Below are positions 25,842 through 53,718 of a stretch of DNA of 64,000 nucleotides, one piece after another. The stretch is from an uncultured bacterium (GTDB lineage: Bacteria; Actinomycetota; Geothermincolia; Geothermincolales; Geothermincolaceae), in NCBI GenBank assembly GCA_963814495.1, contig CAWFDJ010000016.1, forward strand, positions 28,106-92,105, in the 5' to 3' direction. Below the pieces are notes generated by a model, which made no database searches, was not told where the DNA came from, and saw only the letters and a program-made list of their open reading frames with translations. Position 1 is the stretch's first letter. Every line of letters begins with the position of its first letter. Both the position numbers and the translations under genes were made by a program.

Positions 25842-25956
25842 CGGCGGGGCCTTATGCCCGCCCTTTACCCCTTCATGCCTGGTTAACTTGGCGCCGGGCC
25901 ATCTGCTATGCTGGATGGGGAAGAGAGGCTTTTTCTTTTAAAGGAGTGGTGGAGAT

Positions 25957-27765
25957 GAAGGCCTTGCGCGTGTCGATCATCGTGACCCTGGCCCTGGCGA
26001 CGCTGGCGTTCTTCCCGGTTGCCGCGCAGGCCGCGGTGCCCGACAAGCCCACGGCCGTCTCGCCCAACTGGGGGGCCCTGGACGTGCCGGTCAACCCCGC
26101 CCTGTCAGGCTCCGCTTACTCCGGCACCGGGACCCACACTGAGACGCAGTGGCAGGTGGACGACTGCTACGAGTTTACTTCCCCCGACTGGTACCGCACC
26201 TCCTCAGGCCGAGGTCCAGACGGTGGTCAACGCGGCCAACGGCACCTTCGCCGACTCCCTGGCCGGCAGGACCAGCCTGGACGAGAACGAGCAATACTAC
26301 TGGAGGTTCCGCTACTCCAACGACAGCGGACAGCTGGAGCGAATGGTCCGACTACCGCTTCTTCATCACCACCACCACCACCTGGTACCTGGCGGAGGGG
26401 AGCACCGCCGGGGGCATGGAGACCTGGGTGCTGGTGCAGAACCCGGGCGACACCGACGCGGTGGTGGACATCGACTTCCAGACCGGCGAGGGGCCGGTGG
26501 CGGGGCCGCAGGGCGACGTCATCCCCCCCAACAGCCGCCGCTCCTACTCCGTGGGCTCCTACGTGACCACCTACGACGTCTCGACCAAGGTGACCGCCAC
26601 CTCCGGCACGGTCATCTGCGAGCGCGCCATGTACGGGCCGGGGCGGGCCTGGGGCCACGACTCCATCGGGGTCACCACCCCCCGCATCAACTGGTACCTG
26701 GCGGAGGGGGCCACGGCGGGCGGCATGGAGACCTGGGTGCTGGTGCAGAACCCCAACGCCTCGGCGGTGACCGTGGACCTCACCCTGCAGACGGAGGCCG
26801 GCGCCCTGTCGCCGCCGGCGCTGCAGGACGTGGACATCCCCGCCGCCAGCCGCCGCTCCTTCAACCTCGGCCTGTACGTGGAGACCTATAACGTCTCCAC
26901 CAAGGTCGCCTCCAGCGGCGCTGTCATCTGCGAGCGCGCCATGTACGGCAACGGGCGCGCCTGGGGGCACGACTCCATCGGCGCCCCTTCCTATACCTTC
27001 ATGTGGCTGTTCGCGGAGGGGTGCACCGGCGCGGGCTTCGAGACCTGGGTGCTGGTGCAGAACCCCATGAGCTACCAGCAGGAAGTGGCCCTGTTCTTCT
27101 CCGACGAGGTCGGCCCCATCGCCGTCTACCCCCGGTTCAACGTCCCGGCCAACTCGCCGGATGTCGGTGAACGTCGGGGACTACGTGCAGTCCTACAACG
27201 TGGCCGTCACCGCGGTCACCTGGAACGAGGCCGGCGGCACAATCGACACCGGCGGCAAGATCATCTGCGAGCGGGCCATGTACGACAGCGGCCGCACCTG
27301 GGGGACCGACTCCATCGGCATTCCGGGCATTGCGGCGCCGTTCTGGGCCCTGCCCGAGGGGAGCACCGCCGGGGGCATGGAGACCTGGGTGCTGGTGCTC
27401 AACCCCAGCTCGTCCGAGGCCGCTACCGTCAGCCTGGTGTTCATGACCGACGCCGGCATCGTCATCCCGCCGGAGCTGCAGGGCGTGGCCCTGCCGGCCT
27501 TCTCGCGCCGCTCCTTCAACGTCGGCGACTACGTGCAGACCTTCGACGTCTCCACCCTGGTGGACGCGGCCGACCCGGTGGTGTGCGAGCGCGCCATGTA
27601 CGGCCCCGGCCGGGCCTGGGCCCACGACTCCATCGGCTACATCCTGGGCTGGGGGGGTATCTCGTCCGCGTCGCGGGCTACTCCGCGGCCGGCCTGGGCG
27701 GCGAAGGCGCCACGCAGGTCGACCCGGCCGCCTGGCTCGACGGCTTCCGCGCCGCCGCCCGCTAA
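25957..27765 (+). CDS. Secreted protein with 4 tandem ~105-aa repeats of an unrecognised domain (repeat protein 1; several frameshifts)
   Basis: Signal peptide MKALRVSIIVTLALATLAFFPVAAQA; repeats begin at ~26383, 26689, 27003, 27339 with W[YF]LAEG.T.GG.ETWVLVQNP ... VICERAMYG ... W.HDSIG; ends at TAA 27763..27765 abutting a palindrome. Confidence 0.65.
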
Positions 27766-27937: not shown

Positions 27938-29793
27938 ATGCACAAGTCCGCTGGCCCGTTCGTACGTTTTCTCGTCCCGATAACCGTCATCTTGATGGCC
28001 CTGTCGTGCCTGGCGCTGACGCGGGCGTCTCCATCGCCGCGCCCGCCGCCCCGACATTGATCTCGCCCGAGACGACTCGGTCGACCGTACCCGTCAATCC
28101 CGCCCTGCAGGCATCCGCCTATTCCGGCTACCCGGCTCACCAGGCCACCCAGTGGCAGATCGACGACATGCAGCGATTTCTCCACGCCGGAGTGGACCCG
28201 CGTCTTCCTCCGGCCGGAGACGCAGGTCCAGGTCAACGCGGCCAACGGGACCTTCGCCAACGAATGCGCCGGCAGGTCCAGCCTCGAGACGAACATGAGC
28301 TACTTCGGTGGAGGGTGCGCTACCAGGACACCAACAGCGACATGGAGCCCCTGGAGCGCTACCGGCTTCTTCGTCACCGCCACCGACACCTGGTACCTGG
28401 CGGAGGGATGCACCGCCGGCGGTTTCGAGACCTGGGTGCTGGTGCAGAACCCGGCGGATGAACGATGCCAGTCGTCAACATCCAGTTCCAGACGGACACC
28501 GGGACCGGTCTCGCCCCCCGCGCTGCAGAACCTGACCATCCCGGCCTAACAGCCGCCGCTCCTTCAACGTGGGAGTCTACGTGACCACTTACAACGTTTC
28601 CACCAAGGTCACCGCCACCCAGGGGACCATCGCCTGCGAGCGCGCCATGTACGGCCACGGGCGGGCCTGGGGGCACGACTCCATCGGGGTCACCGCCCCC
28701 TCGAGCACCTGGTACCTGGCGGAGGGGTGCACCGCCGGCGGCATGGAGACCTGGGTGCTGGTACAGAACCCCAACGCCACCGCGGTCACCGTGGACCTGT
28801 CCTTCATGACCTCCACGGGCTCCGGTCCCCGGTCCTCAGGATTACACGGTACCCGGCATATTCCCGGACGTCCTTCAACGCTCGGGGACTATGTCAGCGA
28901 CTACAACGTCTCTACTCAGGTCATTTCCTCCGGAGGAGACGTCATCTGCGAGCGGGCCATGTACGGCAACGGGCGGGCCTGGGGCGCACGACTCCATCGG
29001 CGTCACCCAGGCCGGCCTGCGGGTGGGTCTTCGCGGAAGGGTGCACCGCGGGCGGCATGGAGACCTGGATACTGGTGCAGAACACCCAGTTGAAGACGCC
29101 AGGACGTAAGGGCTTACGTGATGGACGATCCAGGACGGTGCTGGGGTACATCCCGATGACCGTCGGCGCCCGGCTCGCGTTCCTCGCTCAACGTCGGCGA
29201 CTACGTGCGAGTCGTACAGCGTCTCCTTCATCGTCGTCACCGTGGACGCTGCCGGGGAATACGACGATACCGGCGAGATCGTCTGCGAGCGGGCCATGTA
29301 CGGCAACACGCGCGAGTGGGGACACGACTCCATCGGCGCCGCCTTCCCCTGCCCGGTCTGGACCCTTCCCGAGGGCTGCACCGCGGGCGGCTTCGAGACC
29401 TGGGTGCTGGTGCCTGAATCCCATAGACGAAGCCCAGTACGTGGACGTGTCCTTCATGACCGACGAGCGGGCAGGTCGAGCCGCCGGACTGCAGGACATG
29501 TACCATGGAAGCCTTCTCGCGCAAGTCCATCAACGTGGGGGCTTACGTCAACACTTACGACGTCTCCACCGTCGTCGTAGGCGGACGACTCGTCGTCTGC
29601 GAGCGGTCCATGTACGGCTACGGCCACGCCTGGGCGCACAACTCCATCGGTTACCCCATGGGATTACGGGGACCCGCTGTCGATGACGTCGGTGTCCGCG
29701 TCTTCCGGCTCAGCCGGTTATCTCCGCGGCGAACTGCGACGGCTACTGGACGGGGTCCCGCGCCTCTACCCGCGCTGAACCTCACGCCGACTA
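27938..29793 (+). CDS. Repeat protein 2, tandem paralog of 25957..27765; reading frame broken at least 8 times (pseudogene or repeat-induced assembly errors)
   Basis: RBS GAGGAGG + ATG 27938, signal peptide MHKSAGPFVRFLVPITVILMALSCLAL; N-terminal ..VPVNPALQASAYSG..TQWQIDD.. matches protein 1; four WYLAEGCTAGG[FM]ETWVLVQNP repeats at ~28389, 28709, 29024, 29357. Confidence 0.45.
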
Positions 29794-30976
29794 AATTTGG
29801 GGTCTGACCCTAAATTCAGTAACTCGACGAGGTCGTAGACGGGCAGGCCGCCGGACGCGCGGGAGGTGTCGCCCAGGTTGGCCTCGCAGAAGGGGCAGCA
29901 GGTGACCAGGGCCTCGGCCCCGGTGTCCGCGGCCTCCTCCAGGCGCGCCGCCGCCAGTTCCGCCGCGAAGGAGCCGTGGGCGGTGCGCACGCCGCCGCCC
30001 GCCCCGCAGCAGAGGGAGTTCTCGCGGACGCGCTCCATCTCCACCAGCTCCAGGCCGGGGATGGCCTCGAGGACGCGCCGGGGCGCGTCGAAGACGCCGC
30101 CGTGGCGCCCCAGGTGGCAGGGGTCGTGGTAGGTGACCCGCATCTTCACCTCGGGCGGCTCCAGCTTCCCCTCCTCCAGCATCCTCACGAGGAACTCGGA
30201 GAGGTGCAGCACTTCCGCGTCCAGCGCCCCCAGCTTGGGGTACTCGTGCCGGATGATCCCGTAGCACCCGGCGCAGGCGGTGATGATGGTCGACGCGCCG
30301 CAGCGCGCGAAGGTCTCCAGGTTGCGCCGGGCCAGGTCCTCGTAGAGCCCGCGCTCCCCCACCCGCAGGGCGGTGGAGCCGCAGCAGGCCTCGTCCTTGC
30401 CGAGGATGCCGAAGTCCACGCCCATCCTCTGCAGCAGCTCCGCCGTGGCCACCGCCACCGGCTGGGCCGCGGCCACGTAGGCGGCGGTGCATCCCGGGTA
30501 GTAGAGGACCTCCGCCTGCTCCCGCGGCAGGGTCTTCAGGCGCAGGCGCTTGGCCCAGCGGTCGCGCGACTGGCGCGGCTGCATCCAGGGGTTGTCGTAG
30601 TTGATCACGCTCTTGAGCAGCGCCTCCTGCGCCTCCAGGGGGCCCAGTCCTTCCCGCACCGCCAGGCGCCTCACCTCCATCAGCAGCTCGGTCACCTGGA
30701 TGCCCATGGGGCAGCGCGACTTGCAGGAGTAGCACTGCGAGCAGTAGTAGAGCACCTCCGGCCGGAGGACCTCCTCCTTCCGGCCCAGTTGCAGCAGGCG
30801 CACCAGCTGGCGGGGGGTCACTTCCCAGGCCCGGGCGGTGGGGCAGGAGCCCACGCAGGTGCCGCACTGCATGCAGGAGAAGAGCTTCTTCCCCGCCTCG
30901 GTCTCGCACAGCAACTCGCCGAAGAAGCCCGGCTCGCTGCCGTCCAGCTTCAAGGTGTGGTCGTCCATCATCCATC
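29766..30976 (-). CDS. HdrD/GlcF-like Fe-S oxidoreductase: 2 x [4Fe-4S] ferredoxin motifs + 2 CCG domains
   Basis: CMQCGTCVGSCP and CSQCYSCKSRCP; CCG motifs ..YYPGCTAAY..CCGS.. and ..YHDPCHLGRH..CCGAGGG..; ATGA start overlap with hdrA stop. Confidence 0.75.
29793..29816. terminator. Near-perfect palindrome AAATTTGGGGTCTGACCCTAAATT (copy of 27764..27788)
   Basis: Read directly; lies between convergent repeat protein 2 and the hdrD-like gene, which reads through it. Confidence 0.45.
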
Positions 30977-32926
30977 TCCCGGAGTCAGCGCGTCGATCTG
31001 GTCCAGCAGGACGTCGTCGCCCAGGTTGAGCACCTGCAGGGCGCCCGAGAGGCACTGCACCACGCAGAGTCCGCAGCCCTTGCACAGCACCTCGTTCACC
31101 TTGACCAGGCCCTCCTCCTCTTCCGAAAGGGTCAGCGCTCCGTAGGGGCAGGCTTCTACGCAGAAGCCGCAGCCGCGGCACAGCTCCGTCTCGGCCACCA
31201 CCACCGCCGCCTCCACCTCGACCTCCCCCGCGGCCAGCAGGGCCAGCGCTTCCGCCGCCCCGGCCGAGGCCTGGGCCACCGCGTCGGGGATGTCCTTGGG
31301 CCCCTGGCAGCACCCCGCCACGAAGACGCCGGCGGCGGAGGTCTCCACCGGGCGCAGCTTGGGGTGGGCCTCCAGGAAGAAGCCGTCCGAGTCCCGCGCC
31401 ACCGCGAAGAGGCGCGCCAGTCCCTCCGACTCACGGCGCGGCTCCACCGCGGTGCCCAGCACCACCAGGTCCACGTCCACCTGCACCGGCCGGCCCAGCA
31501 GGGTGTCCTCGGCGTAGACGCGCAGGCGGTCGCCGGCCCGCACCACCTCCGAGCACTTGCCGCGGGTGAAGACCACCCCGTCCTCCCGCACGCGCTGGTA
31601 GAACTCCTGGTAACCCTTGCCGAAGGCCATCACGTCGATGTAGAACTCGTACACCTGCGCGCCGGTCTTCTCCCGCGCCAGGTGGGCCTGTTTCATGTTG
31701 TACATGCAGCAGATGCGCGAGCAGTAGGGGTGCTGGTTCTCGTCCCGGCTGCCGATGCAGTGGAGGAAGGCGATGGCCCGCGGCTCGCTCCCGTCCTTCT
31801 TCAGGATGCGCCCCCCGGTGGGGCCGTTGGAGCTGGAGAGGCGCTCGAACTCCAGGCCGGAGATGACGTCGGGGTAGCGGCCGTAGCCGTACTGGGGCAT
31901 GGCCGCGGCGTCGAAGAGGTCGTACCCGGTGGCCAGCACCACCGCCCCCACCTCCAGGTCCAGGAACTCCTCCTCCTGGTCGAAGTCGATGGCGCCGGGC
32001 GCGCACGCCTCCAGGCACTTCTGGTTGCACTTGCCCTTGGTGAAGTGGAGGCAGCTCTCCGGGTCCACCACCGCCGAGAGCGGCACCGCCTGGGGGAAGG
32101 GGATGTGGATGGCGGAGCGGGCGGCCAGCCCCGCCTCGAATTCCGAGGGGACCTTGCGGACGGCGCAGACCGCCGAGCACTCGCCGCAGCCGGTGCAGGC
32201 CCTGGCGTCCACGTAGCGCGGGCGGCGGCGCACCAGCACCTTGAAGTTGCCCACGTACCCCTCCACCTTCACCACCTCGCTCGAGGTGAGGATGTCGATG
32301 TTGCTGCGGCGCGCCGCCTCCACCATCTTGGGGGTGAGGATGCAGGCCGAGCAGTCCAGGGTGGGGAAGGTCTTGTCCAGCTGGGCCATGTGCCCGCCGA
32401 TGGAGGCGTCCTTTTCCACCAGCCAGACCTGGTAGCCCGCCTTGGCCAGGGTGAGGGAGGCCTGGATGCCGGCGATGCCCCCGCCCACCACCAGGGCGGC
32501 CGGGGTGACCAGCGTCCGCCGCCGCCTTAAGGGCCGCAGGCGCGCCGCCTTGGCCACCGCCGCCCTGACCAGGTCGGCGGCCTTGCGGGTGGCCTCGCCC
32601 CGGTCGTCGTGCACCCACGAGCACTGCTCGCGGATGTTGGCCACCTCCAGGCAGTAGGGATTGATGCCCGCGTCCTCCAGGGCGGCGCGGAAGGTGGGTT
32701 CGTGCATGCGCGGGGAGCAGGCGGCCACCACCACCTTCTCGATGCCTTCCTCGCGGATGTCCCGCTTGATGAGGCCCTGCCCCGCGTCGGAGCACATGTA
32801 GTCGTAGGTGCGGGCCACGCGCACGCCGGGCAGCTCGCGGGCCAGGCGAGCCAGTTCCTCGCAGTCCACGCTCGCCGCGATGTTGGTGCCGCAGTGGCAG
32901 ATGTAGACGCCGATGTCCTTCTTCAT
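30968..32926 (-). CDS. hdrA: HdrA-like FAD-dependent Fe-S oxidoreductase (QmoB-like); all-Cys, no Sec
   Basis: 652-aa intact ORF; N-terminal ..VYICHCGTNIA..CSDAGQ..; FAD-binding GGGIAGIQASLTLAKAGYQV; C-terminal two ferredoxin motifs CRGCGFCVEACP / CKGCGLCVVQC. Confidence 0.75.
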   Translation of the reverse strand: MKKDIGVYICHCGTNIAASVDCEELARLARELPGVRVARTYDYMCSDAGQGLIKRDIREEGIEKVVVAACSPRMHEPTFRAALEDAGINPYCLEVANIREQCSWVHDDRGEATRKAADLVRAAVAKAARLRPLRRRRTLVTPAALVVGGGIAGIQASLTLAKAGYQVWLVEKDASIGGHMAQLDKTFPTLDCSACILTPKMVEAARRSNIDILTSSEVVKVEGYVGNFKVLVRRRPRYVDARACTGCGECSAVCAVRKVPSEFEAGLAARSAIHIPFPQAVPLSAVVDPESCLHFTKGKCNQKCLEACAPGAIDFDQEEEFLDLEVGAVVLATGYDLFDAAAMPQYGYGRYPDVISGLEFERLSSSNGPTGGRILKKDGSEPRAIAFLHCIGSRDENQHPYCSRICCMYNMKQAHLAREKTGAQVYEFYIDVMAFGKGYQEFYQRVREDGVVFTRGKCSEVVRAGDRLRVYAEDTLLGRPVQVDVDLVVLGTAVEPRRESEGLARLFAVARDSDGFFLEAHPKLRPVETSAAGVFVAGCCQGPKDIPDAVAQASAGAAEALALLAAGEVEVEAAVVVAETELCRGCGFCVEACPYGALTLSEEEEGLVKVNEVLCKGCGLCVVQCLSGALQVLNLGDDVLLDQIDALTPGDG

Positions 32927-33045
32927 CCCAGCCGCCCCCGGTGGCCCGGTCCGGCCGGGCCTCCTCCACGATCATCACAACCGTCGAGACAAAACGGAAA
33001 GAACCGTCGATTGTAGTCACTGGTGCGGCGAGTCAACTGCGTAAG

Positions 33046-33193: not shown

Positions 33194-34342
33194 ATGGCTA
33201 GACCGCTCGACGGGATAAGGGTCCTGGACCTCACCCAGCTGCTGCCCGGGCCCTACTGCACCGGCATACTGGCGGACCTCGGCGCCGAGGTCATCAAGAT
33301 CGAGCCGAGGGGGGGCGATTTCGGGCGCCTCCTGGCAGGCATGTTCGACCAGGTCAACCGGGGAAAGAAGAGCATCACCCTCAACCTCAAGGACCAGCGG
33401 GCCCAGCGCGTCTTCCATCGCCTGGCCTCGACGGCCGACGTGGTGGTGGAGGGCTTCCGCCCCGGCACCACCGACCGCCTGGGCGTGGGCTACGAGGCCT
33501 GCCGGGAGACCAACCCTCGCCTCATCTACTGCTCCATCTCCGGCTTCGGCCAGGACGGCCCCTATCGCGACCGGCCGGGCCACGACATCAACTACATGTC
33601 CCTCGGCGGGGCGCTCAGCCTGCTCAAGGGGCGTGACGGCCACCCCGTCAACCCCGGCCTGGAGATGGCCGACGTCACCGCGGGCCTGGAGGCGGCCGTG
33701 GCCATCCTCGCCGCCCTGCTGGCGCGGGGCAACACCGGACGGGGCCAGTTCCTGGACATCTCCATGCTCGACTGCGTGGTCTCCATCCTCCCCATGCACG
33801 CCAACACCTGCCTTTCCCTGGGAATGGTGCCGCCCACCAACCTGACCGACATGTGCTCCCATTACCGCGTCTTCGACACCGCCGACGGCGAATACCTGGT
33901 CATGGGGATCGTGCACGAGGACTGGTTCTGGACCAACCTGGCGGACGCGCTGGACGGCTTCGAGGACGTGCGGGACCTCAAGCACGCGCAGCGCATGGAG
34001 CGCCGCGACGAGCTCATCCGGCGCATGTCCGAGGCCTTCCGCACCCGGACCCTGGCCGAGTGGCTCGAGCACCTGGAAGGCCGGGACATCCCCTACTCCA
34101 CCATCAACGACGTCGCCCAGGCCCTGGAGGACCCGCAGGTGCTGCACCGCGGGATGAAGGTGACCATCCCCGGCCCCGGCGGCGACGTCACCTGCGTCGG
34201 CACCCCCTACAAGCTGTCCGATACCCCGGTCACCTTCGACGCCCCCGCCCCCGGATTGGGCGAGCAAACCGATTCCATCCTGGCCGAATCCGGGTTCTCA
34301 CCAGCGGAAATAACCGATCTGCGCGAGGCCGGCGTGATTTAG
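33194..34342 (+). CDS. Family III CoA-transferase (CaiB/BaiF/Frc family)
   Basis: MARPLDGIRVLDLTQLLPGPYCTGILADLGAEVIKIEP..VVVEGFRPG.. canonical family III N-terminus; 382 aa intact. Confidence 0.8.
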   Translation: MARPLDGIRVLDLTQLLPGPYCTGILADLGAEVIKIEPRGGDFGRLLAGMFDQVNRGKKSITLNLKDQRAQRVFHRLASTADVVVEGFRPGTTDRLGVGYEACRETNPRLIYCSISGFGQDGPYRDRPGHDINYMSLGGALSLLKGRDGHPVNPGLEMADVTAGLEAAVAILAALLARGNTGRGQFLDISMLDCVVSILPMHANTCLSLGMVPPTNLTDMCSHYRVFDTADGEYLVMGIVHEDWFWTNLADALDGFEDVRDLKHAQRMERRDELIRRMSEAFRTRTLAEWLEHLEGRDIPYSTINDVAQALEDPQVLHRGMKVTIPGPGGDVTCVGTPYKLSDTPVTFDAPAPGLGEQTDSILAESGFSPAEITDLREAGVI

Positions 34343-34454
34343 GGGGATTTGGGGAATTTTGTAGATTTCTCTTGATTTATGCCCCCCGTTTGTTAATTAT
34401 ATAGTCCATGAAGATTTCCAAGGGGATTTCGGCGCCAGGGTGGAAGGAGACGAC

Positions 34455-35066
34455 ATGATCAAGATCCTGGGTTTGGCGGGCAGCCCCCGCCAGAGCGGCA
34501 ACACCGCCCACCTCCTGCAGGAGGCCTTGAACGGGGCGGAAGAGGCGGGCGCCGCCGTGGAGAAGGTCTTCCTCTGCAAGAGGAACATCTTCCCCTGCAC
34601 CGGGTGCGAGAGTTGCGTCAAAGACCGGCGAGTGCATCCTGGACGACAGCATGGACCAGCTCTACAAGAAGGTGCTTGCGGCCAACGGCCTGGTCATCGC
34701 CGCCCCCATCTATTTCAATTCCGTGAACGCCCAGACCAAGGCCTTCATCGACCGTTTCCAGTGCATCTGGGAGCGGAAGAACGTCCTCGGCTTAGACAGT
34801 CACCGACCCGGAGACCCGTGACTCGCGCCGCGGCCTCTTCCTCTCGGCGGCCGGGCTGGACAACCCCCGCGCCTTCGAGGGGGCCATCAAGGTACTGGAC
34901 ATCTTCTTCGAGACGGTGGACATCACCTACTACGAGCGCCTGCTCTTCTTCAAGATGAGCGACAAGGGAGCGGTGCAGCGGCACCCCTCGGCCCTGGGCG
35001 ACGCCTTCCGGGCCGGCGGCCACCTGGTGGAGGAGATCTCCCGCCACTTCTCCGGCGAGGCCGAAT
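34455..35066 (+). CDS. NADPH-dependent FMN reductase / flavodoxin-like protein with CxGCxxC motif (frameshifts near 34630 and 34800)
   Basis: MIKILGLAGSPRQSGNTAHLL..IFPCTGCESCVK..GLVIAAPIYFNSVNAQTKAFIDRF.. across frames; RBS GGAAGGAGA before ATG 34455. Confidence 0.6.
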
Positions 35067-35075
35067 AGGGAGAAC

Positions 35076-35390: not shown

Positions 35391-36512
35391 ATGGACAGGA
35401 TACCGGTCTGCGGCGAATGCGGCATTCCACTGATGGTCAGCGGCGAGTTGCGCTGGGAGGGCAACGGCGTCATCTATTCCAACAGCTCGCCCCGCAACCG
35501 CTGGGTCTTCTACGAATCCGAGAACATCGACCCCCTCTTCCGGGGCGTCAGGGAGCTCATCGGTGCCCCCATCGACCACATCGTCATCGAGAGCCGGCGC
35601 CGCGAATCGCGCAGGTACCTCGAGAGGACCTTTCCGCCGGAAGTGCGCCGGCTGCTCTACGACCAGCTCGACGAGTCCGGAAAGCAGGTCCGGATGACGC
35701 CGGAGGAGCGGGCCACCAGGTTCGAGGTCTCCAGGAACATCACCGTCAGCGTGCACGACGTGGCCCGGGTCTTCGGTTACGGGGACCTGGCCCCCGGCAG
35801 CCTCTGGGAGGCCGGCGACGACCACCCCTGGCGCTCCACCATGGTGCGCCACCCCTATTCCGTCCTCTTCCAGGCAGCCGAGAGCCTGGGCTCCTGCGAG
35901 GCCTTCGAGGGCCGCGACCTGTGGGTGGAATACGAGCAGGCCGGCGAGGACCTCTACCGCATGGACTCCTTCCCCCACGAACACCCCCTCGAGCTGAAGG
36001 AGCGGCTGAAGCGGCGGCACTACGACTTCAAGCCGGGTGACATCGTCTACGAACGCTGCGCCTGCGGCATCCCCCTGGAGATAACCAGGTACGGGTGGGA
36101 CCTGGACAAGGGCATCATCGTCGATCCCGACACCGGCCGGCGCATGGCCGTCTTCGGCCCCTACTCCCTCGATTCCGTCTTCGACGACCTGGAGGAAGAG
36201 CTGGGCGAGGCCGTCCCGGAGACCATCATCGAAGCCCAGCGGCTCTACATCAGGCAGGCCTGGAGCGAGGACGTATGGAAACGGGGGGCGGCCGACTTCA
36301 AGCGGCTGCTGGCCCTGCGCGGGCTGGGCTACCTCGCCGGCTTCGAGGGAGACCGCGGCTACCTCACGGTACACATCACCAACTCCTGCCTGCACCTGCT
36401 GATGGTGGGGATCGTCCAGGCCCTGATGGAGCTGGTCTACAAGTCGGAGCGGTCCACCAGCTCCTGGGAGTTGAGCGGCGAAGGCGACCTCGAGGTCACC
36501 GTCCGCCCGTGA
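35391..36512 (+). CDS. Hypothetical protein with two CxxC-initiated repeats (paralog of 21047..22123)
   Basis: ..VCGECGIPLMVSGELRWEGNGVI.. and ..ERCACGIPLEITRYGWDLDKGIIV..; collinear with 21047..22123 product. Confidence 0.6.
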   Translation: MDRIPVCGECGIPLMVSGELRWEGNGVIYSNSSPRNRWVFYESENIDPLFRGVRELIGAPIDHIVIESRRRESRRYLERTFPPEVRRLLYDQLDESGKQVRMTPEERATRFEVSRNITVSVHDVARVFGYGDLAPGSLWEAGDDHPWRSTMVRHPYSVLFQAAESLGSCEAFEGRDLWVEYEQAGEDLYRMDSFPHEHPLELKERLKRRHYDFKPGDIVYERCACGIPLEITRYGWDLDKGIIVDPDTGRRMAVFGPYSLDSVFDDLEEELGEAVPETIIEAQRLYIRQAWSEDVWKRGAADFKRLLALRGLGYLAGFEGDRGYLTVHITNSCLHLLMVGIVQALMELVYKSERSTSSWELSGEGDLEVTVRP

Positions 36513-36612: not shown

Positions 36613-37652
36613 ATGAGCGCGGAAGTAAGGCTGACGCAGTGGTCCAGCAAGGCGGGCTGAGCTGCCAAGCTGGGTCCGGAGGACCTCAAGGACATCCTTA
36701 AATCGCTGCCTCCCGAGCGGCGCGAGGAGTTGCTGGTGGGGCTGGAGACGCCCGACGACGCGGCCGTCTTCCGCCTGCAGCGACGAGCTGGCCCTGGTGC
36801 AGACGGTGGACTTCTTCACCCCCATCGTGGACGACCCCTACCTCTTCGGGCAGATAGCCGCGGCCAACGCCCTCTCGGACATCTTCGCCATGGGGGGAAA
36901 GCCCCTGACCGCCATGAACATCCTCTGCCACCCCTGCAAGCTGGGGAGCGAGGTGGCGGTGGAGATCCTGCGGGGCGGCGCGGACAAGGTCCGGGAGGCG
37001 GGCGCGGTGATCGTGGGCGGCCACACCGTGGACGACGAGGAGCCCAAGTACGGGCTGGCGGTCACCGGGGTGGTACACCCCGGGCGCATCCTCACCGCCG
37101 CGGGGGCTCAGCCGGGCGACCTGCTGGTGCTCACCAAGCCCATCGGCACCGGCATCCTGGCCACCGCGCTCAAGGGGGACTTCCTCGAGGCGGAGGGGAT
37201 GGCGGAGGCCGTGGAGGGCATGCGCGCGCTCAACGCCGCGGCTTCCGGAGGTGGCGCTGGAGGCGGGCGCCCGCGCCTGCACCGACGTGACCGGCTTCGG
37301 CCTGTTGGGGCACCTGCTCGACATGCTGGCGGGCGGCGGGGTGAGCTGCGTCCTCGAAGGCGGGGACGTGCCCCTTTACCCCCGGGTGATGGAGATGGCG
37401 GAGATGGGGATGGTCCCGGCCGGCGCCTACAACAACCGCGCCTTCTACGGGGACAGGGTCTCGGCGGACGGCCTGGACGAGCTGGTCCTGGCGGTGCTGT
37501 GCGACCCCCAGACCTCCGGCGGCCTGCTGCTGGCCGTGCCGCCGGAGCGGGTGGAGGAGGCCCTGGCCGGCCTGGAGGAACGCAATCCCGGCGGTGGGCG
37601 GGTCATCGGGCGCTTCACCGAACCCGGCCCCATCCCCTTGACGATAGAGTGA
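36613..37652 (+). CDS. selD: Selenophosphate synthetase SelD, selenoprotein form (in-frame TGA at 36658..36660; frameshift near 36781)
   Basis: [25 protein letters not shown].. aligns with the SelD active-site GxGC/U..K region; downstream ..[25 protein letters not shown].. AIR-synthase-like fold. Confidence 0.85.
36674..36686 (+). promoter_or_regulatory. Candidate SECIS hairpin GGUCC-GGA-GGACC, 13 nt 3' of the selD UGA
   Basis: Perfect 5-bp stem read from sequence at the canonical bacterial SECIS distance. Confidence 0.35.
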
Positions 37653-37775
37653 CGGTGCCAGGCACCATCACTTTTTCGTCACTTTTTCCGTCACTCTCTG
37701 CCGCGGCTCATGGTCAGGCCATTTTCAATGGGATTATGCTAAAATTTATATACTTTCATTTTTGAGGAGGAGCGC

Positions 37776-38359
37776 ATGGATAGACGGCAATACGGTGGAC
37801 GCGCGGGGGCTGGCCTGTCCCCAGCCGGTGGTCATGACCAAGCAGGCCCTGCGGGAGGCCGCCGGTCCCCTTACGGTGCTGGTGGACAACCCCACGGCCC
37901 GGGACAACGTCACCCGCTTCGCCCGCTCGCAGGGGTGCGAGGTGGAGGCGCGGGAGGAGGACTTCGGCTTCAGCCTGGAGGTCACCCCGGGGCGCCGGGG
38001 AGGCCGCGGCGACCGGGGAGAGCGGCGCGCATCTCTTCGTCCTCTCCTCGGACTTCATGGGCAAGGTCGACAACGACCTGGGGCACCTGCTCGTCAAGGC
38101 CTTCCTCAACACCCTGGCGGACCGGGACGACCTCCCCTCCCACCTCGTCCTCTTCAACAGCGGGGTGGTCCTGGCCTGCGGGGAAGCGGAGACGGTGGCC
38201 CCGCTCAAGCGGCTGGAGGGCCGGGGCGTGTCCATCCTGGCCTGCGGCACCTGCCTGGACTTCTTCGGTCTCAAGGAGGAACTGCGGGCGGGCATGGTCA
38301 GCAACATGTACGAGATAGTGGACGCGCTGGCGGGAGCCGGCAAGTGCATAACGATTTAA
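37776..38359 (+). CDS. yedF: YedF-type selenium metabolism protein (TusA-like + DsrE/DsrF-like); probable 1-nt insertion after the ATG
   Basis: ..[24 protein letters not shown].. (TusA CPxP motif) and ..[34 protein letters not shown].. (DsrE-like); RBS GAGGAGG + ATG 37776. Confidence 0.6.
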
Positions 38360-38365
38360 TACGAT

Positions 38366-38428
38366 GTCATTGCGAGCAAGCGAAGAACGATCCATGAGAT
38401 TGCTTCGTCGCAAGCTCCTCGCAATGAC
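38366..38428. repeat. 63-nt imperfect palindromic intergenic element, copy 2
   Basis: GTCATTGCGAGCAAGCGAAG...CTTCGTCGCAAGCTCCTCGCAATGAC; shares an identical 27-mer with the element at 4276..4331. Confidence 0.5.
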
Positions 38429-38446
38429 ATGGAAGGTAGGAGGCGG

Positions 38447-39868
<1,422 letters not shown>

Positions 39869-39872
39869 ACAG

Positions 39873-41803
39873 TTGCAGGGCCTGATCATCGGCACCGCCG
39901 GCCATATCGACCACGGCAAGACCCAGCTGATCAAGGCCCTCACCGGCACCGACACCGACCGCCTCAAGGAGGAGAAGGAGCGGGGCATCTCCATCGAGCT
40001 GGGCTTCGCCGAGTTCCCCCTGCCCGACGGCACGCCGGCCGGGGTGGTGGACGTCCCCGGGCACGAGCACTTCGTCAAGAACATGCTGGCCGGGGCCACC
40101 GGTTTCGACCTGGTGCTGCTGGTGGTGGCGGCGGACGACGGGGTGATGCCCCAGACCCGCGAGCACCTGGCCATCATCGACCTGCTGCAGGTGCGCGAGG
40201 GGCTGGTGGTCGTCACCAAGGCCGACCTGGCGGACTGAGGAGATGGTCGAGCTGGTGCGGGAAGAGGTGGGCGAGCTGCTGGCCGGCACCACCCTGGAGG
40301 AGGCGGAGGTCATCACCACCTCCACCGTCACCGGGCAGGGCCTGGACGAGCTCAAGGCAGGCGCTGATGCGCGCGGCCGGGCGGGTGCGGGCGCGCCGGG
40401 GCGACGGGCCCTTCCGCCTGCCGGTGGACCGGGTCTTCACCCTGAAGGGCATCGGCACGGTGGTCACCGGGACGCTGTGGGAGGGTTCCGTCTCCGACGG
40501 GGACGAGGCCGTCCTCGAGCCGCAGGGCCGGGCGGTGCGCGTGCGCAACGTGCAGGTGCACGGGAAGGAAGTGGAGGCGGCGCTGGCCGGACAGCGCGTA
40601 GCGCTCAACCTGCCGGGCATCGCCGTCGAGGAGATCGACCGCGGCGACGTGGTGGTGAGCGCGGGGTACCTCTCCCCCACCTTCATGGTCGACGCCCGCC
40701 TGCACCTGCTGGAGAGCGCCCCGCGCCCCCTGAAGAACCGCTCCCGCATCCGCTTCCACCACGCCACCCGCGAAGTGCTCGGACGGGTGGTCCTGCTGCG
40801 GGAGGCGCGGGAAGGACAGGAGGTACAGGAACTGGCCCCGGGGGCCAGCGCTTACGTCCAGTTCCGCCTGGAGGCCCCGGTGGTGGTCAAGTACGGGGAC
40901 CGTTTCATCCTGCGCAGCTACTCCCCCGTCACCACCATCGGCGGCGGGCAGGTGCTCGACTCCCATCCCCCGAAGCACCGCCGGGTCGACCAGGGCCTGC
41001 TCGAGGCGCTGGCCGTGCGGGAGCGGGGGGAGGTCTCGGGGGTGCTCCAGTCCGTCTTCGACGGGCGGGGGGTGCCGCTCGACCTGGAGAGCCTGGAGCG
41101 CCTGAGCGAGATGGACCCGCAAGCTGTCCGCGCCACGGCGGAGGAGATGCTGCGGGAGGGGACCTGGCGCGGCATACCTTCCGAGCGCAAGGCCAAGCTG
41201 ATGCCCGTCAAAGATGTACGACGCTTACGCGGAGAAGATCACGGGGCTGCTGAAGTCCTTTCACCAGGCCAATCCCAGGGAAGCAGGCATGGAGAAGGAG
41301 ACCCTGCGCACCCGTCTCTCGCGCACCCTGCCCGCGGGTGATTTCGACGCCATGCTCAAGCTGCTGGCAGGAGGGGGGCGCCGTGACCGTCAAGGAGGGC
41401 AGGGTGTCCATCCGGGGCGAGGGCCGGGCGCTCACTTCCGACGAGGAGCCGGGAGAAGCAGGCCGTTCTTGCCGATATCGAGGCGGGCGGCTTCGCGCCC
41501 CCCTTCCTCAAGGAGTTGGCCGAGGCGCACCGCCTGGACGCCCGCAAGGCGCGGGACTTCATCGGCATGCTGATGGAGGAAGGGGCCATCGAGCAGGTGA
41601 CGCAGGATTACTACCTGGCCCGCGGCAGGCTGGCCGAAGCGGAGGAGGGCATCCGCGCCTTCCTGGCCGCACACGGCCGCCTGGAGGTCAAGGACCTCAA
41701 GGAGATGTACGGCCTGACGCGCAAGTACTCCATCCCCCTGCTCGAGCACTTCGACAGGTCCCGGGTGACGCGGCGCGACGGCGATTACCGCGTGTTATGG
41801 TGA
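39873..41803 (+). CDS. selB: Selenocysteine-specific elongation factor SelB (about 5 frameshifts; TTG start)
   Basis: [25 protein letters not shown] (G1), DVPGHE (G3), ..VVTKADL (G4), beta-barrel domains, C-terminal winged-helix domains ending ..[10 protein letters not shown]. Confidence 0.8.
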
Positions 41804-41833
41804 TTACGGCTGTTTTTAGGTAATATCGTTTAC

Positions 41834-41929
41834 GGAGATGCATTCGTCCTGGTGGGCGGCCCGGTCTTCAAAACCGGTGCGGCGTCGTAAAGGGCGTCGG
41901 GTAAGTTCGATTCTTACGCATCTCCGCCA
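41834..41929 (+). tRNA. selC: tRNA-Sec (anticodon UCA)
   Basis: 96 nt GGAGATGC...GCATCTCC-G-CCA; 8-bp acceptor stem, 6-bp D-stem with 4-nt loop, anticodon loop CUUCAAA, long variable arm, T-arm GTAAG-TTCGATT-CTTAC. Confidence 0.85.
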
Positions 41930-42040
41930 CTTTTTGGGTCAAGTCCTGTGAAGTGGCCCCAGGTCTTGGGAACGCTCTGCCCGCAACTGGCAGTCGTCAA
42001 CTTCAAAGTGGACCTGACCCCAGTTCGCTCACGTCCCGGA

Positions 42041-44595
42041 CTACCGCGGGTAGCCGATGGAGTCGGTGGCCCAGGTGCGGCCGTTCCCGTACATCGAGCG
42101 CTCGCAGATGACCCCGCCGCCCGAGGATACGACCTCCGTCGAGACGTTGTAGTCGGTCACGTAGTCGTTGACCTTGAAGGTGACCCGGGAAAAGCCGGGG
42201 ATGTTCACGTCCTGCGGTCCGGCTACGTACCCCGAACCTGTCATGAAACCGAGGTCCACGGTCACGGCTCCGCTGTTGGGGTTCTGCACCAGCACGAAGG
42301 TCTCCATGCCCCCGTCGGTGGAACCCTCCGCCAGGAACCAGACGTCGGAGGCGGCAGCGGTGGTCCCGATGGAGTCGTGGGCCCAGGCGCGGCCGTTGCC
42401 GTAGACCGAGCGTTCGGCGATGACCGGGATGCTGCCGGAGACCGCCGGTGGACACGTTGAAGTCGGTGACGTAGTCGTTGACCTTGAAGGTGACCCGGGA
42501 ATAGGCGGGTATGGTCACGTCCTGCGGGCCGGGCACCACCCCGGCGCCGGTCATGAAGTCCAGGTCGACCAGGGCAGCGGACGAGTAAGGGTTCTGCACC
42601 AGCACGAAGGTCTCCATGCCGCCGTCGGTGGAGCCCTCCGCCAGGAACCAGAGGTCGGAGGGGACGGTGACCCCGATGGAGTCGTGGGCCCAGGTGCGCC
42701 CGTTGCCGTAGACGGAGCGCTCGCAGATGACGTCATCCGTGGCTTCCACTACGGTGGAGACGTTGTAGTCGGTGACGTAGTCGTTGACCTTGAAGGACGC
42801 GCGGGATTGGGCCGGGAGGGTGTAGACCGGCGGCCCGGGCTCCGCGCCCGCGCTGGTCATGAAGTCCATGTACACGTCCACCGGGTAGGCGTTGGGGTTC
42901 TGCACCAGCACGAAGGTCTCCATGCCGCCGTCGGTGGAGCCCTCCGCCAGGAACCAGAGGTCGCTCGGGTCGGTGACCCCGATGGAGTCGTGGGCCCAGG
43001 CGCGCTCGTTCCCGTAGACCGAACGCTCGCAGATGACGTTGCCCCCGGCCGGGGTGACCTTGGTGGACACGTCGAAGTCGGTGACGTAGTCGTTGGCCTT
43101 GATGGTGACGCGGGAGTTCGCCGGGACGAGGACGTCGTTCAGGGCTCCGGGAGCCACGACCCCGCTTCCGGTCATGAAGGTGACGTCAACCGTGACGTCG
43201 TCGGCGTTGGGGTTCTGCACCAGCACGAAGGTCTCCATGCCGCCGTCGGTGGAGCCCTCCGCCAGGTACCAGGGGGCGCCGTTGTAGACCTCCTCTGTGT
43301 AGAGGATGCCGTCGACGAAGCCCGGCCCGCCGCCGATGCCGTCCCAGGCGACGCGGGGGTTGCCCAGCGGGTCCACCGCGATCACCGGGTACGACTCCGA
43401 GCACTCCGAGAGCATCACCGGCGCGGACCAGCCGCCCCCCCGGTTGGCCGAGTACCAGACGTCAAGCCCGCTTGCGCCGTTGCTCCACACCCAGACCACC
43501 TGGGGATAGCCGTCCTCGCCCACGGCTATCTCGGGCATGTGGTTGGTGTCGCTTGAGGGGTCGAGGTTGAGCGGGGTGGTCCAGCCGCTGCCGGGGTCGG
43601 TGGTGTAGAAGGTCCCTTGGTGCGTGCCGTCGAACCCGCTCCAGACGACGTGCGGGTGCCCGGCCGGGTCCACCGCCATCCGCGCGTGATCAAAGTCCGT
43701 TATGCCGGCGGCCACGTTCACGGGGGCGGACCAGCCGGTCCCGGGGTTGGCGACGTAGTGGATCCCCTGGGGGGAGGAGCTCACCTCCCACATCACGTGC
43801 AGGCCGTCCAGGTCGTCGACGACCAGGGTCGGGTAATAGCCGATGACGGTGCCGGAGATGCTCACCGGGGGGGTCCAGAGCCGGAGGGCGCGGCGGTGGA
43901 GTAGAAGACCCGGGGGGACCCGTCGCTGCCGTACCAGACCACGTGGAGGTTCCCCGTCGAGTCCACCCCGATCTTGGGGCGCTGGTTGTCCGTGGTCCCC
44001 GACGACAGGTCCAGCGGCACCGACCAGCCTCCTCCGATGTCCCTGGTGAAGTAGGTCCTGATCACCGCGGAGTAGGTGCCCTTGAAGACGACGTAGGCCC
44101 CGTCCCCGTCCACGGCGATGTCGGGGGCGGCGTTGTCCACGGAGGGGCCGGCCGAGGAGAGGTTGACCGGGGCCGACCATCCCGCCTCACCCAGGGTGGA
44201 GTAGAGGACGTGCACGCTGGAGACGGAGTACTCGCACCAGACCACGTGGGGGCTGCCGTCCGGCCCCAGGACCATCTTGTAGTCGTCGGGGTCCTCGTCG
44301 GTGCCGGTCGAGACGATGGCCGGCTCGGACCAGCCCGAGCCCAGGTTCTCGGAGTAATAGAGGTCCAGACCGTGCCCGCCTGGCCCTTCCAGAGGACGTG
44401 GGTGCCCCCCTGGCCGTCCACGGCGATCTGCGGTGACTGGTTGCTGGTGATGGTGTCGGAGGAGATGTTCACCGGCTCCGACCACCCGGGCGACGCGACC
44501 GCGCTCGAACCGCCCAGCATCATCCCCGCCGACGCCAGCATCATCACCGCTGTCAACAGGGCCAGCCTCGTCTTGATCCTTGTTCTACCTCGCAC
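42041..44595 (-). CDS. Secreted protein: signal peptide + BNR-like (GWSxP) beta-propeller repeats + 5-6 C-terminal copies of the ~105-aa WYLAEG repeat (repeat protein 3; frameshifts)
   Basis: GTG start with RBS AAGGAGGT; MRGRTRIKTRLALLTAVMMLASAGMMLGGSSAVASPG; ~8 units of ..G.GWS.P..LS..(P.IAVD..G..HVVW); then W[YF]LAEGSTDGGMETFVLVQNP..VICERSVYG..WAHDSIG repeats; ends ..DSIGYPR*. Confidence 0.65.
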
Positions 44596-49182: not shown

Positions 49183-52100
49183 TCAGCTCACCTTCCTTAC
49201 GTTGACCAGGAACGCTTTGTACTCCGGGATGGTGGTGTTGCCGTCGCCCACGTGCGGGGTGAGCTGGTTGGCCGCGTAGCTGCGCTTGGCCACCTTACCC
49301 TGCTCGCCGCGCTCCCGCCCGCCGGGGAACATCCCGGTGAAGCCGAAGTGCCAGACCATGCCGACCACGTGCACGTCCCTGGTGCCGCCGTTGCCGTCGC
49401 CCACGTTGATGGGCTGCAGGCGGGGGGTGACCACCGCCACGCCCTGCACCTTGCCGCGCAGGCTGCTTACTTCAACGACAGTCGCCCTTGCTGATGCCCA
49501 GCTCGTCCGCCAGGGACTTGGAGAGCTCCACGAACATCTCCGGCATGGCCTCGCCCAGCCAGGAGAGGCTGCGGGTCATCTGGCCCGCCTGCCAGTGCTC
49601 GGTGACGCGGTAGGTGGTGCCGATGTAGGGATAGTCGGTGGAGCCGACCTCCGCGAATCCGTACTTCTCCGGGTCGCCGCCCTTCTCCGGGTCGGTGGAG
49701 GGGTACTTCAGCACCGCGGCCGGGTTGTTCTGCTGCTTGCTGAGCGCGTTGTGCACGGGGCTCTCGGCCGGCTCGTAGTGCTCGGGGAAGGGTCCCTCGT
49801 TGGCCTTGTTGGTGAAGAGCAGGCCGAGCTGGCTCTCCTTCCAGTCCATCATCAGGAAGGGTCCGTTGTTCACGCCGGAAGCAGGTCGCCGGGGGCGTGT
49901 TGGGCGCGTCGGCGGTGCCTGCTACGAAGTCGGGCACGTCGTTGTTGACCCACTTGGCGCCGTCCCAGCTCACCAGGGCCTTGTCCTTGGCCCAGGGCTC
50001 ACCGTTGTAGTCGGCCGAGCAGCGGTTGTAGATGACGCGGCGGTTGACAGGCCAGCACCAGGCCCAGTAGGGATAGAGCTGCAGGCCCGGCTGGTCCGGG
50101 TAGATCTTGTTGGGGTCGGTCTGGTACTGCCACTTGAGCTTGTTGCGGGAGACGGTGCCCTTGTCGACGCCCGCCGCCTTGGCGACGGTCTCGAGCAGGG
50201 CGTCGCCTTCCTTGACGTAGAGGCCGCGAGTAGATCCAGTTGCAGCAGGCGGTGCTCCCGTCGGCCAGCAGGGTGGCGAAGGAGACCAGGGTGCTGGCAC
50301 GCGCCTTGTCCCAGAAGTCCTTGGTGCCCTTGACGTCCTTGGGATAGGTGAACCCGTTCAGCTCCAGGTCGATGTTGTCTACGACGATCTCGCCGTGCTC
50401 GTCCCGCTCGTAGTCCCAGAACATCCCGGTGATGGCCTCGCGCGCCGGAGCGCTCTTGTCGTCCTCGTAGAGGGCCTTCAGGCGGGTGGCGAGCTGGTCG
50501 GCTATCCACAGGTCGCTCTCGGCCTCGCCCGGGGGGCTCACCGCCTTGTAGCGGTACTGGGCCAGGCGGCCGGAGTTGGACACCGAGCCCTCCTTCTCGA
50601 TGGAGGAGGCGGCGGGCAGGGCGTAGACCTTGGTGGGGATGTTCTTGACGTCGGCCCCGGGGCGCCGCCAGAAGTTCATCATCTCGGTGTCCCAGAGGTC
50701 GATGGCCACCAGCCAGTCCAGCTTGTCCAGGGCGGCGCACTCCAGGTTGGCGTTGGGCCCGCCCACCGGCGGGTTCTGCCCCCAGCTGATGCAGCCCTTG
50801 ATGATGCCCTGGTACATGTCCTCGAAGAGGGGGATGTGGGAGTAGTCCTTGGACCCGTCGCGCTTGGGCATGCAGGTCGTAGGCGGCCGCCAGGCCCTTT
50901 TCCGCGACCACGCCGGGCCACCAGCACTTCAGCATGCTGGCCAGGAACTTGGGCCGGTTGACCCAGTAGCCGCCGATCTTCTCCGGGCGAGGAGGCGGCG
51001 TTGTAGGTGTCCAGGTCCTTCTCCTTGGAGGTGGGGCAGGGCATGTAGCCGGGGATGATGTGGTAGAGCAGGGCGGCGTCGGTGGAACCCTGCACGTTGG
51101 ACTCGCCGCGCAGCGCGTTGATGCCGCCGCCCGGCAGGCCGGTGTTGCCCAGCAGCAGCTGGAGCACGGCGAAGGTGCGGATCTTCTCCACCCCGACGGT
51201 GGACTGGGTGAGGCCCATGGCGTACATGAGGTTGCCCGACTTGCCCGGCATGTAGGTCTGCTTGACGTAGGCCTCGGCCAGTTCCTTGAACTTGGCCTGG
51301 GGGATGCCGCAGACCTTCTCCACCATGGCCGGGGTGTAGCGGGAGTAGTGCTCCTCCAGCTTGGCGAAGGCGCTCTGGGAATAGAGCGGGTGCTCCCGGT
51401 TGACCTTGCAGGTGCTGGGATCCCCGTTCTCCATGCCGGTGGGCTTGCCCCGGAAGTTGGTCATGTCATCGACGTCGATGAGGGGCATGCGCAGGGCGCC
51501 CGTCTTGGCGGCCTGGTCCTTGTACTGGACCATCCAGGTGCTCTTGTCGTAGGCGGCGCCCATGGTCTTGCCGTCCTGGCGGCCGCTGAACAGCCCGGTG
51601 GCGGAGTCGAAGCTGAAGCCGTCCACCACCAGCAGGGGCCCGTTGGTGTAGTTCTGCACGTACTCCCATTGTATGTAGTTGTTCTGGATGGCGTAATTGA
51701 TGAGGCCGCCGAAGAAGGCGATGTCGGTGCCGGGACGGATGAAGGAGAAGGCATCGGCCTTGGCGGCGGAACGGGTGAACCGGGGGTCTACCACCACCAG
51801 CTTGGCTCCCCGTTTGTCGCGGGCGTCCTGGATCCACTTCCAGGAGATGGGATGGTTCTCGGCGCAGTTGCAGCCGCAGACCATGAAGGCGTCGGCGTTA
51901 CGCAGGTCGGACCAGTGGTTGGTCATGGCGCCCCGCCCGTATGTGGCCCCCAGACTGGAGACCGTGGCGGAGTGTCATATTCGGGCCTGGTGTTCGAGGT
52001 AGACGATGCCGAGTGCCCGGGCCAGCTTGGTTTCCAGCGCCAGTTCCTCGTTGTCCAGCGCGGCCCCGCCCAGGTTGGCGATGCCGGTGCACCGGTTGAC

Positions 52101-52538
52101 GGTGACCCCGTCCTTGTCCGTCGTCGTGAAGTTGGCGTCCCGGGTCTCCTTGATGAGTTTGGCGATGTCGTCCAGCGCCTCCTCCCAGGAGATCTCCTTC
52201 CATTCGGTGGCGTTGGGCTCGCGGACGCGGACCTTCTTCAAGCGCCACTCGCTGGTGGACGTCTGGAGGATGGCCTGCCCCTTGGAACAGAGTGAACCCC
52301 GGTTGATCGTGCTGTCGGCGAGGCCCTCCATGGCCACCACCTTGCCGTCCTGGACGCTCACGATGGCTGAGCACCCGACGCCACAGTAAGGGCATACCGT
52401 GGTGGTCTCGGTCGCGCTGCTGATGCGAAGCGTCTCCCCCGCGGCGATAGCCGAGGCCTCAAAGCCCAGGCTGATCAGCGCGACGGAGCCTATCCCCGCA
52501 CCGGAGAGCTTCAGGAAACCTCTTCGCGTAATTTCCAT
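49183..52538 (-). CDS. fdhA: Formate dehydrogenase catalytic subunit, Tat-exported selenoprotein (in-frame TGA at 51975..51977; about 3 further frameshifts)
   Basis: Twin-arginine signal MEITRRGFLKLSGAGIGSVALISLGFEASA; ..VCPYCGVGC..; ..LEHQARI-U-HSATVSSLGATYGRGAMTNHWSDLRNADAFMV.. matches the FdnG/FdhF Sec region (UHGPTV..GRGAMTNHW). Confidence 0.85.
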
Positions 52539-52806: not shown

Positions 52807-53661
52807 TCATGAGAAAACCGTCCGACAGGCCCGGTCATACCCTTCCTTCTGCGCCGCCTCGTCCAGGTAGGAGGTGAACAGGTCCTCCAGGGGGAGGACG
52901 ATCTCCTCCGGTTGCCCCTTGCGGTCGGTTATCTTGATGTAGCGCTTGCAGCTGTCGCAGACGTAGACGCGCCGGGCGCGGTCTTCTCCCGCGAAGAGGT
53001 ACTTCAGCTTTTCCTGCTGCGCCGCGCCGCAGAAGAGGCAGAGCATGCGGGGGGTGCCCCAGCGGCTGCCGCAGAGGGAACACTCCAGCACGCGCAAGCC
53101 GTCCTCGTCTCGGTTGAAGCCCATCACCGGCGGCGCCCCGCATACGGGGCAGGCGGCGTGGGGGAACTGGTCCAGGTCGATGCGGGGATGCAGTTCCAGG
53201 GCCAGCTTGCGGAAGACAGCGGCGAAAGTGGCGTGCAGGAGCAGGCTGAGCACGCTGTAGTCCACGTCGAACTCCTCGGCCATGGCCTTGAGAGAATCCT
53301 CCCGCCCCTCCAGCCAGGCGCGCCCCAGCTCCTCCACTTCTTCCGGGCTCAGTTCCCGGTTCTTCAGGAATTCGCGTTCCCGCGTTCCGGTGGAGCTGCT
53401 CTTGCGGGCGACTATTCCCTTGATCTCCTGGAAAAGCTGGTTGAAGGTCTCGTAGCCGACCTCGATCGACTCCGGGTCCAGCAGGGGCAATCCTTCCCCC
53501 AGCCGTGCCCTGATCTGGACCTCGTCAAGCTCCGGCGAGGACACTTCCAGGCGGCCCAGGTATTTCTTCTGGGCCCCGAATATGTCGCGGTACAGCTTCA
53601 TGGTCCTGGTGATCCGGTCGCTCAAGGCTTCGTACTCCTTGATGCGCCGGTTGATCAGCAC
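52807..53661 (-). CDS. fdhE: Formate dehydrogenase accessory protein FdhE-like
   Basis: Four CxxC pairs ([30 protein letters not shown]) in the FdhE arrangement. Confidence 0.65.
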
Positions 53662-53718
53662 CTTGGTCGTCTTCGGCTGCTTCAGGTTGAACTCTCCTAT
53701 GTCGATCGACCTCCCGTC

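Follow-up and report, generated by a model that had tools for sequence, protein, structure and literature searches.

A probable complete selenocysteine-decoding operon, interrupted as sequenced by single-base insertions, in an uncultured Geothermincolia-like actinomycetote

In Escherichia coli, whose selA, selB, selC and selD genes form the paradigm of bacterial selenocysteine (Sec) decoding, the selAB genes, selC and selD lie at separate sites, and SelD uses a Cys residue. An autocatalytic, Sec-dependent SelD occurs in many anaerobes. YedF, which is also named FdhU in Campylobacter, has reportedly been recognized as a SelD-linked protein of TusA/SirA and DsrE parts by Zhang et al. 2008 and by Lin et al. 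2015. A statistical association between YedF and SelD has already been described, together with the two domains and the motifs CPxP and CGxC of the protein, and the family has been defined by a TusA/SirA-like domain with CPxP, a DsrE-like domain with CGxC and the presence of SelD in the genome (PMC5322559). Herein, we describe a gene island on a 64-kb stretch of contig CAWFDJ010000016.1 (hereafter the window, meaning the whole stretch of DNA that was analysed), which very probably represents a complete Sec-decoding operon from an uncultured actinomycetote resembling the Geothermincolia, its reading frames being interrupted by extra bases that are best taken as sequencing or assembly errors. 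This assignment was based on family membership, motifs, gene order, conserved in-frame UGA codons, tRNA structure, and an element in fdhA resembling the selenocysteine insertion sequence (SECIS) family SECIS_3.

The Sec-decoding genes and their clients

The island consists of selD (36613..37652), yedF (37776..38359), selA (38447..39869), selB (39873..41803), and the tRNA-Sec gene selC (41834..41929), which are co-linear on the plus strand within 5.3 kb, with selC placed last. This is the order and strand proposed in a first-pass annotation made from the sequence alone; all the components it named were present, and its coordinates proved exact, including the ATG of selD at 36613. Its statement that the machinery is confirmed holds for the corrected sequence but not for the sequence as written, in which no protein gene of the island forms a continuous open reading frame (ORF) and ten frame-breaking 1-nucleotide (nt) insertions, all in the +1 direction, are distributed over selD (two), yedF (two), selA (one), and selB (five). 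The frame jumps were traced with a third-position-GC frame plot and a seven-state hidden Markov model (HMM), followed by frame stitching, and the protein properties given below are those of the corrected translations.

The relatives used for comparison were the metagenome-assembled genome (MAG) MFD04716.bin.1.266 (CAVXXD010000006.1; loci L001 and L003), ERZ3460579 NODE_6424 (L002), JGI 3300063141 (L164), and JGI 3300075153, the contig that encodes the SelA protein P0001. L001, L002, and L164 all show the order selD(U)-yedF-selA-selB-tRNA-Sec, and a tRNA-Sec follows selB in five relatives. In scans of contigs with SelA, the nearest homologues showed 82% identity among genome contigs and 76% among metagenome contigs. 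The SelA of Candidatus Solincola (Geothermincolia) was approximately 65% identical and those of closer MAGs were 82-95% identical; on this basis, the organism belongs with uncultured Actinomycetota close to Candidatus Solincola.

The lone tRNA called by ARAGORN in the 64-kb window was a tRNA-Sec with the anticodon tca at position 35, and 41834..41929 matched the Rfam family RF01852 with 76.6 bits (gathering score, 47). The anticodon loop reads CUUCAAA in the Rfam alignment. In the folded RNA, the acceptor stem has 8 bp, the T stem 5 bp with a UUCGAUU loop, and the variable-arm stem 6 bp, and both the single-sequence and the consensus folds agreed with the 8/5 arrangement, in which the acceptor and T stems make up a 13-bp helix. 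RF01852 models a ninth acceptor pair, and this was marked non-canonical here, as it should be in an 8/5 tRNA. In the D stem, five pairs were folded, and a sixth closing pair (U-G) was seen by eye. The fold was much more stable than those of shuffled sequences (z = -4.0). The gene, which begins 30 nt past the selB stop and encodes its 3' end GCCA within its 96 nt, is 100% identical to the counterpart at L001; those of four other relatives differ from it by no more than four bases, and no indels were seen among six relatives. Two tools, ARAGORN and Rfam, thus accepted it as tRNA-Sec, and the UCA anticodon, 8/5 stems, and long variable arm that had been read from the sequence beforehand were all borne out.

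Both SelA and SelB passed the NCBIfam and Pfam profile searches once their frameshifts had been corrected, as the first-pass call of these two genes demanded. The selA product, an L-seryl-tRNA(Sec) selenium transferase of 473 aa, scored 596.5 bits against TIGR00474 (cut-off 267.9), was matched by PF03841 at 1-366 of its 367 model positions, and contains the motif of the lysine that binds pyridoxal 5'-phosphate (FSGDK; 11 protein letters not shown). Its alignment with P0001, which is itself an intact protein of 473 aa, was free of gaps over 473 residues and showed 95% identity with conservative changes. The same contig encodes an intact YedF of 193 aa and an intact SelB of 641 aa, equal to the corrected lengths obtained here. 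The Sec-specific elongation factor SelB, whose gene starts with TTG 3 nt past the selA stop, scored 395.8 bits against TIGR00475 (cut-off 242.25); the Pfam domains GTP_EFTU, GTP_EFTU_D2, Beta-barrel_SelB, SelB-wing_2, and SelB-wing_3 were all found above their cut-offs, and the G1, G3, and G4 motifs are visible (14 protein letters not shown, and TKAD).

The selD product (345 aa), a selenide water dikinase (selenophosphate synthetase), contains an in-frame TGA at 36658..36660 in the context SSKAG-U-AAKLGP. After removal of two 1-nt insertions, it displayed the equivalog score (TIGR00476, 394.9 bits; cut-off 125), the AIRS and AIRS_C domains (Pfam), and the N-terminal Gly-rich loop, with a Lys three residues after the Sec or Cys, that characterize SelD, and the G-U-AAK motif was kept in 52 loci that were anchored on SelA and have selD just upstream. 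Since SelD itself requires Sec, the system would be autocatalytic. An AT-rich spacer of 123 nt (37653..37775) separates selD from yedF, and a hairpin followed by a T-run (37654..37676, plus strand) stands directly after the selD stop; this terminator-like element, which was found by a consensus scan, is weak, as such matches were no more frequent than in shuffled sequence. The spacer is variable in length among the relatives and contains TATA-like stretches in the window copy. It may hold an internal promoter for yedF-selA-selB-selC, and the hairpin together with the AT-rich spacer may mean that selD and yedF-selA-selB-selC are separate transcripts.

The protein encoded by yedF (193 aa) scored 195.5 bits against TIGR03527 (cut-off 110). 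Of its two domains, TusA was matched with 67.1 bits and DsrE with 21.0 bits, slightly below the 22.7 cut-off of the latter, and the CPxP and CGxC motifs are present as ACPQP and ACGTC, respectively; all the features of the published family definition (PMC5322559) were thus found here. The gene starts with an ATG preceded by GAGGAGG, and both this start and the length of 193 aa agree with those of the relatives. A YedF-type TusA/DsrE fusion does lie between selD and selA, as the first-pass annotation had it, but to call the gene inserted is inappropriate, as it was a conserved member of the cluster in all the close relatives examined.

The Sec-containing FdhA that had been noted 10 kb from selC also proved to be real. 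The fdhA gene (49183..52538, minus strand), encoding a formate dehydrogenase-N-type alpha subunit, contains a TGA at 51977..51975 within EHQARI-U-HSATV, and its corrected product passed TIGR01553 (988.7 bits against 814.2) with the UGA at the canonical active-site position. A twin-arginine translocation (Tat) signal (MEITRRGFLK) was identified in it. A SECIS-like hairpin spans and follows the UGA (51980..51922); it matched SECIS_3 (RF01989) over the full length with 44.4 bits, which is under the gathering score of 63, with E = 2e-9 in the local search, and its fold gave z = -2.66 relative to shuffled sequences. When in-frame stops within segments of coding potential were inspected across the window for more selenoprotein genes, only those of selD and fdhA qualified, and the others were gene ends. 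The predicted clients within the window are two, selD itself and a Tat-exported FdhN-type FdhA. On the minus strand, the gene order is TatA, TatC, FdhE (54741..52844), FdhA, an FdhB-like 4Fe-4S protein, RnfC-like, RnfD-like, and ApbE.

From the characterized families, the following pathway can be proposed. SelD, itself a selenoprotein, would convert selenide and ATP to selenophosphate, and YedF probably handles or delivers reduced selenium via its cysteine motifs. The tRNA would be provided by selC and its seryl form, Ser-tRNA(Sec), turned by SelA into Sec-tRNA(Sec), which SelB-GTP would carry, through its winged helices, to the UGA-SECIS sites in fdhA and selD.

Origin of the frame-breaking insertions

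The insertions were located near 36778-36781 and 37243-37247 in selD, at about 37782 (directly after the ATG start) and 37989-37993 in yedF, near 39829-39839 in selA, and near 40236, 40353-40357, 41210-41213, 41367-41369, and 41449-41452 in selB. The one in selA, approximately 30 nt ahead of the stop, joins the ORF as written into selB out of frame and thereby creates a read-through ORF of 970 aa. In a MAFFT alignment of the island with the two closest loci with DNA, L002 (86.5% nucleotide identity) and L001 (79.9%), exactly one base of the window was missing from both relatives at eight of the nine junctions obtained by the frame analysis. The ninth junction, in the middle of yedF, has one extra base relative to L002; at this place L001 shows a larger indel that is specific to that locus. 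The tenth insertion, past the yedF start, was deduced from one extra base relative to L002 and from the N-termini of the YedF proteins of the relatives. As a separate observation, selB is also split in L001 (11460..13369) and L002 (5887..7817), by single-base indels of their own at positions other than those in the window, so that a frame-broken selB recurs in assemblies from this lineage.

Such breaks are not confined to the island. Over the whole window, same-strand frame switches numbered 52 in the +1 and 16 in the -1 direction, whereas genuine gene junctions are expected to split evenly between the two. In a cell-wall cluster that is conserved in actinobacteria (140..4245; PP2C phosphatase, RodA/FtsW, and a penicillin-binding protein, PBP), the transpeptidase domain of the PBP (2830..4245) was recovered as four pieces in alternating frames, covering the consecutive Pfam coordinates 1-30, 40-139, 150-220, and 229-299, with the adjacent dimerization domain on a fifth piece. 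Single Pfam matches likewise cross two frame switches in ApbE and several in FdhA; fdhA carries five further single-base insertions, and its Molybdopterin and Molydop_binding domains extend across the switches. When compared with locus L163, the gene of a flavodoxin-like flavin mononucleotide (FMN) reductase shows two 1-nt insertions (34620 and 34792). A self-BLAST of the window furthermore located two phoU copies (7850..8520 and 12013..12683) that are approximately 99.7% identical at the DNA level and differ by a single extra G at 8117, a position that coincides with a frame switch. Examples of such single-base +1 breaks also lie at 44905, 45292, and 49479..50984.

Because the same +1 breaks occur in unrelated genes throughout the window, the ten insertions in the island are most likely sequence or assembly noise rather than decay of the Sec trait, and the organism itself most likely has intact, functional genes. 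Several points weigh against this interpretation. It is drawn from window-wide evidence and is not proof, and a search of the insertion sites for a common motif or homopolymer context found none, so that no technology is implicated. The switches are also patchy: nine were detected by the HMM in the 5.2-kb island and five in the 3.4-kb fdhA, and the remaining 55 kb contains about 38 in the +1 direction, such that the island lies at approximately 2.5 to 4 times the window average; the PBP gene is even more densely broken. With respect to the decoding system, the role of YedF in the cluster is a prediction, and no convincing SECIS was found in selD by single-sequence folds, RNAalifold, or Rfam. 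A short GGUCC-GGA-GGACC hairpin (5 bp) located 15 nt past the selD UGA was no better than shuffled sequence (z = -0.3 and -0.6), RNAalifold on 13 regions downstream of the UGA returned a trivial three-pair consensus with no covariation, and a permissive Rfam scan gave no family match.

If the insertions were instead real mutations, the strain could be losing the Sec trait, with the island being a set of young pseudogenes beside an intact tRNA-Sec. The four protein genes and their client fdhA are indeed all frame-broken as written, and the raised switch density in the island and fdhA is in line with such a decay. Nevertheless, like +1 insertions occur in the PBP, ApbE, and FMN-reductase genes and in one of the two phoU copies; the events in the island are all +1, without deletions; the corrected genes contain no nonsense substitutions, and their codon bias is not relaxed (third-position GC of about 0.95 throughout). 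Considering also the 95% protein identity to intact relatives with conservative changes, and the UGAs of both selD and fdhA, which were kept and not replaced by Cys codons, we regard loss of the trait as unlikely. A reading in which the extra bases are real and the genome as a whole has dozens of +1 insertions in well-conserved genes, including those of the Sec machinery and cell-wall enzymes, appears highly improbable; it would imply either a very recent genome-wide pseudogenization by an insertion-biased mutator or an expression apparatus that tolerates or corrects +1 errors. The uniform direction of the shifts would also suit programmed +1 ribosomal frameshifting. This explanation is effectively refuted, however, by the number of sites, ten within 5 kb besides dozens in other, unrelated genes, which have no slippery motif in common, and by the relatives, in which the extra base is missing at the homologous positions and the genes are single ORFs.

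A different question is whether selD and yedF mainly supply selenium for other ends, for example 2-selenouridine or a Se-dependent molybdenum cofactor, with Sec decoding being secondary. SelD feeds all known selenium traits, which is compatible with such a role. The general co-occurrence of YedF with SelD (PMC5322559) can be read in the same manner. On the other hand, selA, selB, and selC stand in the same string, two UGA-containing genes are present, and no homologue of selU/ybbB or yqeB/yqeC was found in the scanned part of the window; other selenium use as the main function is therefore unlikely.

With the extra bases read as sequencing or assembly errors in a complete Sec-decoding operon, a spurious base would have been inserted into the assembly about once every 1-2 kb, and counts of pseudogenes, fusions, or 'novel' ORFs taken from the window, the 970-aa selA-selB ORF for example, would be unreliable before polishing. 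Annotators of this genome should in addition allow UGA to be read as Sec, since otherwise selD and fdhA are truncated or split.

Genes around the island

Upstream of the island, the minus strand encodes an HdrA-like flavoprotein that has 4Fe-4S motifs, together with a CCG-domain (HdrD-like) protein (29823..32978), and the plus strand encodes a family III coenzyme A (CoA)-transferase (33205..34266) and the FMN reductase (34449..35073). These neighbours recur in related MAGs. The HdrA-like protein in the window was found to have no in-frame UGA.

The gene immediately preceding selD (35391..36512, plus strand) encodes an intact protein of 373 aa with the paired Cys motifs CGECGIPL and CACGIPLE, a paralogue of which lies at about 21053..22038 on the minus strand. 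No Pfam or NCBIfam match was obtained for this protein, and an exact look-up of its sequence gave no entry. Only 185 homologues were found; all of those whose source is named come from Actinomycetota MAGs, and some contigs have several paralogues. The gene was considered as a member of the island and rejected, as in the relatives it follows the FMN-reductase gene and is not consistently beside selD.

Large secreted proteins composed of repeated DUF5719-like modules are encoded at 42003..44578 (minus strand) and 25946..27762 (plus strand), and what appears to be a decayed copy of such a gene occupies about 28086..29654. The repeats share the motif WYLAEGST..GMETWVLVQNP..VICER and are 74-80% identical to one another at the DNA level. 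One of these genes sits between tRNA-Sec and ApbE, where it is inserted relative to the related loci.

The two phoU copies belong to tandem phosphate-uptake operons on the minus strand (7846..11800 and 12009..16100), each with the order phoU-pstB-pstA-pstC-pstS. Outside phoU, these operons are 75-87% identical, and the near-identity of phoU within diverged operons points to gene conversion or to a partial duplication of recent date. They are followed by a histidine-kinase and response-regulator pair (16416..18461), which is PhoR/PhoB-like by position.

Comparison with known systems

The biological gain from this locus is small, as Sec use, a Sec-containing SelD, the YedF link, and FdhA as a client are all established already. 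The operon is a textbook system that is already represented in public genomes from its lineage, being present and partly annotated in related Actinomycetota MAGs.

Those MAGs are the closest counterparts. L001 and L002 share the CoA-transferase and FMN-reductase genes upstream of the cluster and ApbE downstream of it, L001 also having Rnf and an Fdh, and in L164 the core cluster follows the FMN-reductase gene. Compared with them, the window has an additional gene before selD (that of the 373-aa hypothetical protein), a DUF5719-repeat surface-protein gene after selC, and its own ten insertions. The window YedF matches the TIGR03527 family in having two domains, in its CPxP and CGxC motifs, and in lying close to selD and the Sec genes; nothing material differs between them. 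The FdhA resembles the FdnG/FdhN-type Sec formate dehydrogenases in its Tat signal, in HQARI-U-H, and in the hairpin that starts at the UGA; it departs from them in that its SECIS match is sub-threshold and that fdhA is followed by the FdhB-like 4Fe-4S, RnfC-like, RnfD-like, and ApbE genes. Relative to the E. coli paradigm, the same four components were identified at the equivalog level, including the G-U-xxK loop of SelD, the FSGDK motif of SelA, the G1/G3/G4 motifs and winged helices of SelB, and the 8/5 tRNA with UCA, whereas the genes of the window are co-linear within 5.3 kb with selC last, and its SelD is a selenoprotein.

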